64,000 nt of DNA from NCBI RefSeq assembly GCF_058153355.1, contig NZ_CM177019.1. The stretch is one strand, 5' to 3'. Below, piece after piece: positions 18,001-42,000 of this stretch; within the stretch, counting starts at the first letter, position 1, and the number at the start of each line of letters is the position of its first letter. The position numbers are program-made.

Positions 18001-21000
18001 TCCGTCGCGCCGCTTTGCACATTGATGGTTCCATCCTGATTCATCAGAAGGCGCGCGCCTGCTATTTCTACGCCGACAGGCCAGGTGTTAGAGGTGTAGC
18101 TAAAACAGGCGACGCCAACGCCGCGGCGTAAATTGCCTTGCTGGTTCTGGCATTCTGCACGGCGTTTTTCCCATTCAAATATTTTCCGGCCTTTTTCAAG
18201 ACACTCCGGTAACCCTGCGCTGTAAATACGTTTGCCCGTGAGCGGATTAGCATCTCCTTCGCGGGCGGCGTTGCGTAAACGAATTTCAATAGGATCAATA
18301 TTTAACGCTGTCGCGGCGTCATCAAGCATTGACTCAACGGCAAATACGACTTGTGGCGCGCCATAACCGCGCATCGCTCCAGCCGAGGGGAGGTTGGTAT
18401 AAAAGGTCTTTGAACTGTAAGCGTAGGCACAACGAGGATAAAGGTAAGCGACTTTATTCCCGCCCGCAGAAGCGATGGAGTGCCCGTGAGATGCATAAGC
18501 GCCGGTGTTAGACAGAACATCCAGACTATAACCTTTCAATGTTCCGTCGCGGTTCACGCCCATTTGCCCGTCAATAGTAAAAGCGTGGCGGGTACGGGTT
18601 GCGAGGAAACACTCTTCACGGCTAAGGGAAACTTTCACCGGAATGCCGCCGAGCTTGCTGGTCAGAAATGCCGCCATTGGCTCTTCCAGTACATCCTGTT
18701 TATTACCAAAACCGCCACCGACAAACGGTTTGATGACTCGTACGCATGACCAGGGAATATCCAGCGCCTGACCAACTACGCGGCGAACAATGTGCGGGAT
18801 CTGGGTGCTGGAAACGATGGTAATTCGAGAGTCATCCTCCATCCATGCCAGCGATGTCACGCTTTCCATATGACAATGTTGAATAACGGGAGTCTGATAG
18901 TGCCCCTGCACCTGGTAATCGGCGGCATCGATTGTTTGTTGGACATTACCCGTCGACATCGAGCTTTGTTTTAGTAAATTGCCGCCGTTATGGATTGGTG
19001 CAGCATCTTCTGCCAACGCCGCTTCTGGCGTGGTGATAACGGGTAATTCTTGCCACTCAATGCTGACCAATTGCGCCGCTTTTTCTGCCGTGAGTTCATC
19101 ACGGGCCACGACGATGGCAACGGCGTCACCATGATGACGAACATGGCGAGTTAGCAGTGCGCGATCGGCGGTATCGCGCTTGTTTTCGTCAAGTGTCCAG
19201 GCATGCCCAGCTGTAGCGAATGGGATATCAGGTACATCTTCCCAGGTAAAAATTGCCAGTACGCCTGGTAAACTTCTGGCTTGTTCATCATTAATACTTA
19301 CGGCATAACCATGTGCGATAGGGCTACGTACATATTTCGCGTAACACATGCCCGCCATAACATAATCGTCAGTATATCGTGCCCGCCCAGTGACCTTAGC
19401 AATGGCATCGACGCGCATGCATGATTCACCCGTAGCGGTTGCTTCCCGCGCTTCCATAGAAATCCCCTCGATTTGAACATTTGGTTCTTATGGCAAAGAT
19501 TTAGTCTAAGCAGGCAAGATTTACGCCAGAAACGACGATAAACGTTAGGGGAGGAAGGAAGTGTGATGACGTTAAAAAAATACAGATACGATACGAAACA
19601 GGACTTTGAATAGGGACAGTGATACGTATCAATATGAGTGGCGATAAAATCAATGTGATAAATTAGGATTATTACGCATCAGGATGGGAAATAGGGTAAA
19701 AGAGTCAGGAACTTCGATACCACCACAGCAAATATTTTGCTTATGATACTTCCCTTTGCCAAATGAAATTAATCTCTTTCTCAATTACCTCGTTTTTCCA
19801 GAAGCGAGAGATTGGGTATCAAGAGGCTGGCTGCTATGATATGGCGTCTTGTTTTTTAAGCGAGGAAAGATTTTGAGTGCGGGACGCCTGAATAAAAAAT
19901 CTCTGGGTATCGTGATGTTGTTATCGATTGGACTGCTTTTGGCGGGCTGTTCGGGTTGCAAATCATCCGATACAGGAACGTATTCCGGCTCCGTTTACAC
20001 CGTGAAACGGGGGGATACGCTATATCGTATTTCGCGCACCACGGGAACCAGCGTAAAAGAACTTGCGCGACTGAACGGCATTTCACCCCCTTACACCATT
20101 GAAGTTGGTCAGAAACTAAAACTGGGTGGGGCGAAAAATAGCAGTAGTACACGTAAAGCAACCGCCAAATCAACGACCAAAACCGCATCGGTTACACCGT
20201 CATCAGCGGTACCGAAATCTTCCTGGCCGCCAGTAGGGCAACGTTGTTGGTTATGGCCAACGACAGGGAAAGTTATCATGCCGTATTCGACAGCTGATGG
20301 CGGCAATAAAGGGATTGATATCTCTGCTCCACGGGGTACACCTATTTACGCCGCGGGTGCAGGAAAGGTGGTGTATGTGGGCAACCAGCTGCGTGGCTAC
20401 GGTAATCTCATCATGATTAAACACAGTGAAGATTACATTACGGCTTACGCCCATAATGACACGATGCTGGTAAATAATGGGCAAAGCGTGAAGGCTGGGC
20501 AAAAAATCGCCACTATGGGGAGCACTGATGCGGCATCGGTTCGCCTGCATTTCCAGATTCGTTACCGTGCAACGGCAATTGATCCGCTACGTTACTTGCC
20601 GCCTCAGGGCAGCAAGCCAAAATGCTGATGGCGAATTAATCAGCAGTCAGCAGCGCGGCACTTGCTAAGGAGAGCGTAAGGTTTATAATGCCTTACGCAT
20701 CTCGAAGCGGGCGTAGTTCAATGGTAGAACGAGAGCTTCCCAAGCTCTATACGAGGGTTCGATTCCCTTCGTCCGCTCCAAACAAACATTTCTCAACGTC
20801 TACTAAAGTCCATCAAACCCACGAGTATCAAGCCTTCCAGCCATTTTCATAGTTTATTAACGTCTACTCACAACTACCAGAATCTACACACAGAAGTGTA
20901 TAGTAATGCGTATAGGACAAAATTTATTTTTTGGAGCTATACACATGCTGCTTTCAGACCTTGCCATCAGGCGCGCGAAGCCGAAAGAAAAGGCTTATAC

Positions 21001-39000: not shown

Positions 39001-42000
39001 TGCAAGGTGCTTGACCGTCTGAAAGCTCTTTCCTCACTGACGGCTAATGAGTTTATGGCTGGGCGCAGTGCCGCCCTGAAATCTCATCCTATCGACTGGC
39101 GACACACATCTGAGCCGGAAGGCTTCACACACCTGAACGAGCAGTTTCAGAGCTATACGCCATATCAATTTGCTGTATCACGCAATGAGCATGGTCGGGT
39201 GCATGGTTTTTTTATCGGTAACGTGTTCCATGTTGTATGGCTGGATCCGCATCACCGGCTTTACCCTGGTAAATAATTTTCATGCTGGTGGTGTAATCAT
39301 CCACCAGCTTGATCACGGATAACAGGGGATGTGTAATCCCCAAGCGAGTGATAAATGTGTATAGAAATGTGTATAGAATCTATTTTAGAACTCGAGAATG
39401 TGCCTTTATTACTGGTCTTGTTGCTTGTTGTATTGTTCCCTTCGCCGCTCCAATTTATCTTCACCTCATCAATCTGCCATTTTTGCTGTATCTGATTTTC
39501 TATATTATCTTAATTCAATTGCTTCAGACTTTTCGCAATCGCTGTAACACTTCCCCATTTTTTTGTAAATAAAAGCGTTTACGCAATGCAATCCATTTGT
39601 AACAACCCAGGTAAAATACCTTATTTTCAAGTTGTTAAATAAGTGGTTATCTACGCTTTTAACAAACGATTGATGGAATCTTTGTAAGCGGCTCGCCAGA
39701 ACCGTATTGATATTTACTGAGAGCTCAGATCAACTTTCCAGGGCAACAGATCGCGTACCCGGTTTGCCGGCCAGTCCTGGATATGTTCAATGACGTAACG
39801 CAGCCACTTTTCTGGCTCCACATTGTTCAGACGGCATGTGCCGATCAGCGAGTACAACACCGCAGCATGTTCACCACCGCTGTCAGAACCCGCGAAGAGC
39901 CAGTTTTTCCGGCCTACGGCCACTCCCCGTAAGGCGTTCTCTGCGATGTTGTTGTCGATTTCCACCCAGCCATTACTGCAGTACACGTTCAGTGCATCCC
40001 ACTGTTTCAGCAGGTATGCGAACGCTTTTGCCGTGTCCGAGTGACGCGACAGTGTTTTCATCTGTTGCTGTATCCAGTCATACAGTGACTGCATCAGTGG
40101 CGCGGCTCTGGCTTTTCTTGCCGCCAGACGCTGTTCTGCTGAACAGCCCCGGACCTCTGCCTCGATGGCATACAGTTCACCGATACGCTGCAGGGCTTCC
40201 GTGGTGATGTCGGTGGGCACTCTTGCATGCACATCGTGGATTTTTCTCCGGGCATGAGCCATACATGCGGCTTCCGTTATTCTGCCGGATTCGTACAACG
40301 CCCGGTAACCACCGTAAGCATCGGCCTGAAGCACTCCGCTGTAACCGGCCAGATGATTCTGTGGATGGATACCTTTCCGGTCCGGGCTGTACGCGAACCA
40401 GACCGCCGGAGGCATTTCCGAACCGGCGTTACGGTCATCACGAACGTAGACCCACAGCCGGGCAGTCCTTGTTTTACCGCTGCCCGGCTCCTGGACCGGA
40501 ACGGGGATATCATCGGCATGGACTTTACCGGGCATCAGCACATACTGGCGCAGGATGTCATACAGCGGTTCCAGCAGTTCAGCAACAGCACCTGTCCAGC
40601 GCCCCAGTGTGGCACGGCTCAGCTCCACGCCCTGACGACGGTATATTTCTGACTGGCGGTATAACGGCAGATGGTCTGCATATTTTCCAGCGACAACATG
40701 GGCCAGAAGCCCCGCTCCGGCATAACTGCGTGCAATGGGTTTTGAAGGCACCGGAGCCTGCACGATATGGTCGCACCGGCAACAGGCCAGTTTCGGACGT
40801 TGTGTTTCGATAACCTTAAAGGCGCTGCTGATAAGCTCCAGTTGCTCTGACACATCACATCCCAGAGAACTGAGTTCGCCACCACAGGCCGGGCAGCATT
40901 CCTCTTCCGGACGGATGACCCGGGTTTCACGGGGAAGTGAGGCAGGTAACGGTTTACGGGCTGAAGACTGGCGCAGGGGAGATGGCAGTACCGGGTCATA
41001 TTGCTCACCCAGCGTTTCCGCCATTTCTTCCTGAAGAGCGCTGATTCGCTCCTGTGCTTCCTGTATCTGCCGTTCGGTTTTTGCACGAAGTTTTTCTGAG
41101 CTTTTACCGAACTGCATGCGCTGCAGTTTTGCAACCAGCGCCTTCAGCCGGTTGATTTCGGAAGCATAAGCCGCCACCCGCTGTGAGAGCAGGCGGTTGT
41201 ATTTCGCCATCTGGCGGATGGTGTCCTGTTGCGTCTGCAACAGTGCCCGCAGGCGGGCATTCTCATGAGCAAGTGAGGTGTCCATATCCTCACTTTACAA
41301 CGGGTTATATGCGGATGCCAGCGCGTTCCGTTCGTTTCGGGTGTTTCCAGTCGATGCCCTCAAGAAGCATGGATAACTGGGCCGGAGTAAGGTGCACCTT
41401 GCCGTCACGGGTGACCGGCCAGACGAAGCGGCCCCGCTCCAGGCGTCTGGTGAAGAGGCACAGTCCGTCACTGTCAGCCCACAACACTTTTATCTGGTCA
41501 CCCCGGCGTCCGCGGAAGATGAACAGATGCCCGGAGAACGGGTCATCCTTCAGGACGTTCTGAACTTTTGAGGCCAGGCCGTTAAAGCCATTTCGCATAT
41601 CGGTGATACCTGCAACCAGCCAGATACGCGAACCTGCAGGGAGAGATATCACCGTCTCAGCTCCTGTATAAGCAAGGACAGCAGATTTTCATTCACTGCC
41701 CCGTTCAACCGAAGGGTGCCGTTTCTGAACGTAATCTCACAGGAGATGCTGTGTATTTCCGGTGTTACTGACGGTCTTGCGGTCAGTGGCTCATTAGCCG
41801 GAGCAGTTGGGAGTTGGGCATCAATAGTGACAGGAATTAACTGAGATTCTCTGCCTGATTCTGATGATGGCAATTTTATCTTCCCCTGCCGCCATTTCTG
41901 ACGCCATTTGAACAACAGATTGGCATTAATACCATTGTCCAGGGCCAGTCTGGAAATTGAAACACCTGGCTGGAATGATGCTTCTATGAGTCGTTGTTTG

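Follow-up and report, generated by a model that had tools for sequence, protein, structure and literature searches.

We examined a 64,000-nucleotide (nt) stretch of contig NZ_CM177019.1 (assembly GCF_058153355.1), hereafter the window, in which an 18,672-bp block of genes (positions 20781 to 39452) lies between a glycine tRNA gene and the Escherichia coli type III secretion system 2 (ETT2) gene cluster. The tRNA gene, tRNA-Gly(CCC) (20707-20780, + strand), was identified by ARAGORN, the Rfam tRNA model, and alignment with four other loci, and was the sole tRNA that ARAGORN found in the window. From the E. coli K-12 map we take it to be glyU; its neighbors actS (ygeR) and xdhABC were confirmed from the annotation of matching genomes. 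The initial annotation of the window had placed a P4-type integrase immediately 3' of this tRNA and a 17-bp near-copy of the tRNA 3' end at 39436-39452. Both claims held, the first by ARAGORN, NF007246, and Pfam, and the second as a single occurrence. The block between them, in which all genes that we could assign are on the + strand, is likely a site-specific integrative element of the phage-inducible chromosomal island (PICI) type, i.e., a phage satellite, inserted in the 3' end of glyU. Its size is ∼14.3 kb once its two insertion sequences (ISs) are subtracted.

The attL core is formed by the last 18 nt of tRNA-Gly (20763-20780). The 3' end of the tRNA reads TTCCCTTCGTCCGCTCCA in the window, as against the native TTCCCTTCGCCCGCTCCA of four other E. 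coli loci. The 17-mer TTCCCTTCGCCGCTCCA, which is the tRNA 3' end less one C, occurs once in the window, at 39436-39452 on the + strand and in direct orientation to the tRNA; 0.16 matches would be expected by chance with up to 3 mismatches allowed. TGTATAG-type repeats make up the attL arm (20892-20945, +), and attR (39353-39452, +) combines two arm repeats AAATGTGTATAG at 39353-39378 with the 17-nt core. The sequence TGTATAGNA has three sites in the 64-kb window (20897, 39358, and 39370), all of them at the two ends of the island, and these are probable arm-type binding sites of the integrase. The islands at glyU in strains ETEC1747 (locus L001) and OkiPb01676 (locus L002) have an identical 17-nt attR with the same 1-nt deletion, and their tRNA is native. 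The deletion is therefore a feature of the family: what the initial annotation had called an attR remnant is a real bounding repeat but represents the family's normal attR, not decay peculiar to this genome. The simplest explanation is that the attP core itself is imperfect and that strands are exchanged within its last ∼8 nt; spread of a single ancestral integration by flanking recombination is a less simple but possible alternative. In addition, the tRNA in the window has a C-to-T change at 20771 in the 3' acceptor strand (CGTCCGC versus CGCCCGC in four E. coli loci), which creates a G-U pair and lies in the same C-run as that where attR is one base short.

For the empty-site comparison, positions 20400-20780, 39453-39683, and 42161-42600 were joined into one query, which removed the island and an IS just outside it. 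This junction was contiguous in 3,350 of 5,426 complete E. coli genomes, and the best matches covered 100% of it at 98.7 to 99.3% identity. In alignments with these empty-site strains, the tRNA CCA is directly followed by ATTTATCTTCACC, the sequence that follows the 17-mer in the window. The best genome on the ETT2 side is MFDS1019527 (100% coverage, 99.3% identity); glyU is empty in this strain, and its GH15 gene and ETT2 cluster begin 233 bp past the tRNA; in the window, ETT2 cluster genes are found at 42161-64000. The proposal that ETT2 lies distal to the island, rather than directly at glyU, is thus borne out by the comparison that the initial annotation had suggested. What is called the glyU island appears to comprise two parts, a dead satellite of 14 kb that contains two ISs and, after it, the ancestral ETT2 region; ETT2 was therefore not brought by this integrase. 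In the papers found, the glyU island is equated with ETT2 alone, and none of them reports a satellite at glyU.

At the left end of the island is a P4/CP4-57-type tyrosine integrase gene (20945-22309, +; NF007246, E = 2e-95; Pfam Arm-DNA-bind_3, Phage_int_M, and Phage_integrase). Its stop codon TGA has become GGA, and the open reading frame (ORF) extends 50 codons beyond the canonical end (∼22159). As far as the lost stop, the integrase is 99% identical to the 404-aa integrases of ETEC1747 and OkiPb01676. An int-alpA RNA motif (RF02996; 22202-22269, +; 45.5 bits versus a gathering score of 35.8), found in relatives too, is followed by an AlpA-family excisionase/activator gene (23288-23485, +; Pfam Phage_AlpA, PF05930, 2.8e-19; phrog_66/2790) and by a gene for an AntA/AntB-type antirepressor (23564-24364, +; Pfam AntA, PF08346, 5.5e-22; phrog_5817, 8.7e-39). 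The initial annotation had named AlpA, an antirepressor, a single-stranded DNA-binding protein (SSB), PerC, a Panacea pair, and iterons, and all of these were recovered in our profile and motif searches. The gap between int and alpA is a variable slot that holds a cargo gene (22284-23067, +), here present as two ORFs in different frames (22284-22604 and 22624-23067). In relatives, the cargo gene of this slot encodes a single 248-aa protein, and the split may be either a lesion or a natural variant. The cargo gene had no match in NCBIfam, Pfam, PHROGs, or PADLOC. Its family is widespread in Enterobacterales, uncharacterized, and found in 150-aa and 250-aa forms, and the slot between int and alpA is where PICIs often carry defense genes.

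Downstream of the antirepressor gene lies a regulatory module like that of P1 immI (25493-25976, +; Rfam and NF033153). It comprises a c4-a1b1/isrK element (25493-25583, +; Rfam isrK, 68.8 bits), a C4 antisense RNA (25646-25733, +; Rfam C4, 79.9 bits, full-length match), and the end of an Icd-like ORF (∼25827-25976, +; NF033153). As in the immI region of P1 and P7 (C4 antisense RNA, icd, and ant), the C4 RNA has a1/b1- or isrK-like targets upstream and the Icd-like ORF immediately downstream; unlike immI, where ant is downstream of icd, the island has ant upstream of icd and has replication genes after icd. The module is enclosed by a 539-codon ORF (24357-25976, +), which is probably not one real protein. 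Residues 1 to 344 of this ORF had no family match in any library searched, and its Pfam Phage_ASH match (aa 381-487, nt 25497-25817) almost coincides with the c4-a1b1/isrK and C4 RNAs (25493-25733). It may be that the ORF, and perhaps even the Phage_ASH family, amounts to conserved RNA genes read as protein. The C4 element is present in some members of the family (L035 and L050) and absent from the closest glyU relatives (ETEC1747 and OkiPb01676), so the C4/Icd module is a swapped-in allele. One related IMG/VR locus has three full-length C4 RNA genes ∼350 bp apart after one isrK element (L050, 845-1876).

The replication genes are preceded by two small, conserved genes, a phrog_340 gene (28648-28848, +; PHROGs) and a DUF4222 gene (28853-29152, +; Pfam). 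The pri-rep gene reported in the initial annotation is present, and encodes a primase of the D5/P4 type (D5_N and Pox_D5 domains), but is interrupted by ISSso6, an IS of the IS110 family (30166-32101, +). The N-terminal 339 codons of the primase occupy 29149-30165 (+; phrog_864, 2.9e-90; TIGR01613), and the C-terminal part, with the helicase/DUF5906 region, occupies 32102-32833 (+; phrog_864, 1.6e-71). The two halves align to residues 1 to 337 and 342 to 581 of the intact OkiPb01676 primase. The 1.9-kb ISSso6 thus breaks the sole replication initiator of the island between codons 339 and 340. Immediately downstream is a putative replication origin of the iteron type (32840-33075), in which 11 iterons (GGTAGAGGG/GGTAGAAGG), lying in both orientations, surround an AT-rich stretch (32866-32900); as GGTAGARGG, the 11 sites fall within 227 bp (32847-33073). 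By analogy, this region would be the origin, as its layout matches that of Gram-negative PICI origins (PMC6092414). The following genes encode a phrog_1231 protein (33121-33378, +; PHROGs), the SSB (33375-33797, +; library scan), a ProQ/FinO-family protein (33834-34367, +; library scan), and a PerC-family regulator (∼34364-34651, +; Pfam PF06069).

We then come to two genes related to phage heads, which resulted from the search for capsid-redirecting genes that the initial annotation had called for. The first is a scaffold-like gene (35066-35649, +) that is frameshifted by a 1-nt deletion and is homologous to the C-terminal 130 residues of a head-module protein of phage Rac-SA53. In its intact form, a 192-aa protein in ETEC1747 and OkiPb01676, it is 64% identical to residues 295 to 423 of this 430-aa Rac-SA53 protein. 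The second (35714-36385, +; Pfam, AlphaFold2, and Foldseek) encodes a DUF2213 protein whose model has the fold of a prohead protease (assemblin/T4 gp21) and a long C-terminal helix; its identity to residues 1 to 226, the N-terminal half, of the same Rac-SA53 protein is 54%. Across 36 homologues, His73 and Ser127 are invariant and His161 is nearly so. The AlphaFold2 model has a predicted local distance difference test score (pLDDT) of 87, and its top PDB matches in Foldseek were herpesvirus assemblins and the T4 gp21 prohead protease. The Rac-SA53 gene follows terS, terL, rac41, and rac42 and precedes rac44 and rac45. These neighbors are unnamed in the record; we take rac41 and rac42 to be portal and minor head protein genes and rac44 and rac45 to be decoration and major capsid protein genes, and on this reading the 430-aa gene is in the protease/scaffold position. 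The satellite family thus holds a Rac-SA53-type gene as two genes in swapped order, scaffold C-terminus and then protease domain.

Because both genes are homologous to one gene of the Rac-SA53 head module, their sequences point to a phage of the Rac-SA53 type as the helper. The CpmB protein of SaPI1 redirects capsid size and is a satellite protein that resembles the C-terminus of the helper's internal scaffold. The 192-aa protein likewise resembles the C-terminus of a phage scaffold, and this analogy suggests that the island-encoded protein may compete with the phage scaffold for the capsid protein. The two proteins differ in that they have no sequence relation, and the island also carries the protease half, as a separate gene and in swapped order, with the scaffold-like gene frameshifted in this copy. 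When the island core was compared with 50,697 phage records, the only matches were one at 67% identity over the scaffold/DUF2213 region, in two phages, and short ones of 59 nt in 17 other phage records; hence no deposited phage contains the island. In OkiPb01676, two extra genes lie between the DUF2213 and 175-aa genes (L002, 15483-16786), one of them for a 345-aa protein that matches phrog_196 (annotated as baseplate hub; 8e-37), which is unexpected in a satellite.

The next gene encodes a 175-aa protein (36392-36919, +) with an N-terminal winged helix of the Xis/TerS/Rpp type (model pLDDT, 88.5) and a C-terminal domain that had no clear match in the searches made. It is the most conserved marker of the lineage and a hallmark of the family. 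Downstream of it is an array of six AAGTGTCAA sites (36927-37191), which are all six occurrences of this motif in the window (0.67 expected). The array is kept downstream of the 175-aa gene in ∼50 related loci, and divergent members have the variants GTGTAAA and GCGTCAAG. That the array is conserved while its motif has changed in divergent members argues for a cognate pair of protein and sites. Our preferred reading, which we advance tentatively, is that the 175-aa protein is a candidate packaging-specificity factor; a role in transcription or in recombination directionality is a possible alternative. We also considered mimicry of a pac site and rejected it, because AAGTGTCAA-like sites are not enriched in the terS-terL region of Rac-SA53. 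The DUF2213 protein, the homologue of the scaffold C-terminus, and the 175-aa protein with its array are the candidates that the capsid-redirection search yielded.

At the right end, a phrog_1561 gene (37223-37513, +; PHROGs) is followed by a gene for a SocA/Panacea-domain antitoxin (38351-38836, +; PF13274, 6.4e-20; NF047745) and by an overlapping gene for its 147-aa partner (38833-39276, +; no Pfam match). The two are a Panacea (PanA) toxin-antitoxin cargo pair, in which the partner would be the toxin. They fill a slot that, according to annotation, holds SieB, Abi, a kinase, and others in relatives. PADLOC gave no significant defense-system match for the unassigned ORFs of the island. Scans of the island ORFs against PHROG, NCBIfam, and Pfam found no match to tail, holin, lysin, portal, large-terminase, major-capsid, or head-tail connector genes and no homologue of psu, sid, delta, or epsilon. 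The absence of tail, lysis, portal, and large-terminase genes in these scans agrees with the initial view that the content is that of a satellite and not of a prophage.

We compared the island with the features listed for Gram-negative PICIs (PMC6092414) and with the five-component SatelliteFinder model of de Sousa et al. 2023 (PMC10085698). It has an integrase at one end with att direct repeats, AlpA beside int, and a primase gene (split here) with two iteron sets around an AT-rich region. The genes that such elements should lack are absent, the gene order is unidirectional and rightward, the size without ISs (∼14.3 kb) falls in the expected range of about 10 to 15 kb, and the capsid and terS components are present as candidates, identified by homology or fold. 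The island resembles the PICIs EcCICFT073, EcCIEDL933, and EcCIO42 (Fillol-Salom et al. 2018, PMC6092414) in its left-end integrase, AlpA, and unidirectional rightward genes; in its pri-rep gene followed by two iteron sets around an AT-rich core; in its PerC-like gene; and in its size (∼14 kb without ISs), its lack of tail and lysis genes, and its accessory cargo at the ends. Unlike them, it uses a glyU att site, has no RppA, RppB, or RppC homologue and no lambda-type cosN, contains a C4/Icd module, an Ant gene, and a ProQ/FinO gene, and is inactivated in this copy. Judged by homology to RppA, RppB, or RppC in sequence or structure, including the dimerization helix, together with a nearby lambda-type cosN, no protein of the island qualified as an Rpp protein. 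Nor is the island a capsid-forming PICI (cf-PICI), as no large terminase, portal, major capsid, or head-tail adaptor/connector gene of its own was detected.

The mobilized element EcCIMP1 of E. coli MP1 (helper, Kapi1; PMC11773190) is similar in its integrase, AlpA, antirepressor, Ash-family region, primase, and PerC and in having no terminase or capsid genes recognizable by standard annotation. It is classified as "Type C" by SatelliteFinder criteria, and E. coli PICIs typically have PerC-like genes, an Ash region, and an antirepressor (PMC11773190). EcCIMP1 differs in its location (tRNA-Thr between proA and yagU), its size (20 kb), and the module downstream of its primase; moreover, it was mobilized experimentally, whereas the island described here is known from sequence and is broken. 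Satellite phage P4 and the island have the same type of integrase, an AlpA/Vis-type regulator, primases of one family, and, upstream of their replication genes, control based on RNA. The scans of the island found neither the psu-delta-sid operon and epsilon that mark P4-like satellites (Moura de Sousa and Rocha) nor a cos of the P2 type.

The island belongs to a family of related loci. The islands at glyU in ETEC1747 and OkiPb01676 are free of ISs and have the same gene order, and relatives are 12 to 14 kb long. The integrase together with attL was found in 80 of the 5,426 complete E. coli genomes (∼1.5%) at 85 to 97% identity, with none at 99% or above, and the maximum coverage of the island by any complete genome was 48%. 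By this count, IS-free relatives of the island are present at glyU in ∼80 E. coli genomes. IMG/VR contained 80 related loci, mostly predicted proviruses of 12 to 17 kb; these contigs are trimmed, which makes a tRNA scan of the 80 relatives uninformative on alternative att sites. Homologues were found in Citrobacter, Salmonella, Klebsiella, Enterobacter, Serratia, and Pantoea. Modules are swapped freely within the family, with at least four primase alleles and the capsid pair either present or absent.

In an intact member of this family, a helper phage would switch on AlpA, leading to excision and rightward transcription, with the Ant-type protein and the C4-antisense-RNA/Icd module gating early expression. 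The primase-helicase would then fire the iteron origin just downstream of its own gene. The two proteins that jointly correspond to one prohead-protease/scaffold gene of the Rac-SA53 type would interfere with and exploit the helper's heads, and the 175-aa winged-helix protein would bind the adjacent AAGTGTCAA array and direct packaging. The right end would carry swappable cargo, here the Panacea toxin-antitoxin pair. It is possible, though we would not call it probable, that the intact relatives form a distinct, uncharacterized PICI lineage of Enterobacterales that parasitizes lambdoid phages of the Rac-SA53 type. It would then stand apart from described Gram-negative PICIs by its split and swapped protease/scaffold gene and by a new packaging protein and array, with the 175-aa protein analogous rather than homologous to Rpp or TerS. 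Through the island, this widespread and unstudied PICI-like lineage becomes accessible, with a specific phage type as the candidate helper and two hijacking components that can be tested. Most worth following are the pair of genes into which protease and scaffold are split, the 175-aa protein and its array of sites, and the unusual right-end arrays of ISSso6 described below.

Several observations weigh against the reading of the island as a PICI-type satellite. The structural matches of the DUF2213 protein to prohead proteases are weak (E ∼1e-2; TM score, 0.3 to 0.45), and the two capsid-related genes are absent from about half of the related loci and hence not obligatory. The AAGTGTCAA motif is not clustered in the packaging region of Rac-SA53, and searches for lambda cosN and P4 cos gave nothing above chance. 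It is important to note that the boundaries, empty site, gene homologies, lesions, and family conservation were observed directly; helper dependence, the roles of the capsid and packaging proteins, and regulation are, for the whole lineage, predictions from sequence. One rival reading is that the island is no satellite at all. It would then be the remnant of a decayed prophage, or an integrative element that replicates itself, which shares modules with phages and is passed on mostly by vertical descent or by flanking homologous recombination. Such an origin would account for the identical imperfect attR of the three glyU copies examined, which could stem from one ancient integration followed by recombination, and it would fit with the high mosaicism of the family, the lack of a packaging signal in the lambda cosN, P4 cos, and AAGTGTCAA searches, and the ProQ/FinO gene, which is more typical of plasmids. 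However, we consider it unlikely given the compact size (12 to 17 kb) and conserved unidirectional order of the loci and the occurrence of homologues across many genera of Enterobacterales; furthermore, int, alpA, primase, and origin together with homologues of head-morphogenesis genes, and with no other virion genes, are the signature of a PICI. A P4-like satellite that depends on a P2-type helper is very improbable. Although the island has a P4-type integrase, AlpA, the C-terminal domain of P4-family primases, an RNA-based C4/CI-like immunity element, and an Ash-family match, and although typical P4-like elements are likewise scored as "Type C PICI" (PMC10085698), the PHROG, NCBIfam, and Pfam scans revealed no psu, sid, delta, or epsilon homologues, no P4 or P2 cos sequence was found with up to 3 mismatches, and the capsid-related genes match the head module of lambdoid Rac-type phages rather than that of P2. 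We regard the chance that the att-like repeat is a random match and the block is not a discrete element as negligible. The 17-mer with its indel is short, and one or more matches with up to 3 mismatches turned up in 14 of 100 shuffles, but the empty-site genomes join exactly at the repeat, which refutes this explanation, and related islands are bounded by the same repeat.

Whether this copy is a functional, inducible satellite, which would excise, replicate, and be packaged after induction of a helper phage, is a separate matter. The att sites and the alpA, ant, SSB, DUF2213, and 175-aa genes are all intact, and the catalytic region of the integrase is 99% identical to that of relatives. Against this, a 1.9-kb IS divides the island's only replication initiator, a second IS (of the IS66 family) interrupts the early operon, the scaffold-like gene is frameshifted, and the integrase has lost its stop and gained a 50-residue read-through tail, lesions that make a functional satellite highly unlikely. 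Both the longer integrase and the split cargo gene speak less clearly, as neither is proof of inactivity. The copy in the window is best read as an immobilized fossil; judging from its sequence, it may still excise but would be unable to replicate or spread as a satellite, and upon induction, replication and transfer would very probably be negative. The integrase stop loss, the frameshifted gene, ISSso6 in the primase gene, and two IS66-family copies are all additions to the initial annotation.

The two IS66-family copies are 100% identical and inverted relative to each other. The inner copy (26000-28468, +; 2.47 kb; tnpA, tnpB, and tnpC) is flanked by a target duplication of 8 bp, CCTTAACC, and separates the first 10 codons of a small early gene from the rest; when restored in silico, this gene is a 69-codon ORF that is 73% identical to relatives. 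The outer copy (39684-42152, -; target duplication, GAATCTTT) is outside the island, past attR. Only 1 nt separates it from the ATG of the downstream GH15 gene, whose expression it may alter; this is the first of the ETT2-linked genes. An inversion between the two copies, which would cast doubt on attR, was considered and rejected, because each copy has its own intact 8-bp target duplication and both are therefore simple insertions; the direct orientation of attR also rules it out. No full-length match to the element was found in the complete E. coli genomes searched. The best match covered 80% of it at 97% identity (ISCro1-like tnpB/tnpC), with the first ∼500 bp different.

The ISSso6 copy in the primase gene is 99.8% identical to copies that carry this name from PGAP. 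It shows the features of the IS110 family, namely a DEDD/IS110 transposase (30297-31423, +; NF033542, 2.2e-81), no target duplication, and subterminal inverted repeats. The last 205 bp of the element, including the right subterminal inverted repeat, are present as three perfect tandem copies (31484-32104). An independent ISSso6 on plasmid pINV of E. coli VL40 (L006, 1485-2165) has its last 339 bp twice. Both arrays stop exactly at the right terminus of the IS (...CATATCAGC), and the inner breakpoints of both lie after CACGTKAGC and before TGGCG. The repeated segment is in the structured right noncoding end (z = -4.06) and is probably the guide-RNA region. The arrays point to use of pseudo-ends by the recombinase or to reinsertion of minicircles of a subelement, and microhomology-mediated slippage is a possible alternative origin. 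ISPpu9 (PMC12288879) provides a comparison for these right-end arrays.

The primase allele of the window is also present in the chromosome of VL40 (L005, 13726-20522), where ISSso6 has the identical insertion site and the same phrog_1231 and SSB genes follow. Either the broken module has moved between islands, or ISSso6 targets this site repeatedly. In VL40, the module sits in a different PICI-like remnant near fiu/clpS with a gene for a ClpP-protease/major-capsid fusion, which, in a comparison confined to VL40, is unlike the DUF2213 and scaffold-C-terminus pair of the glyU island.

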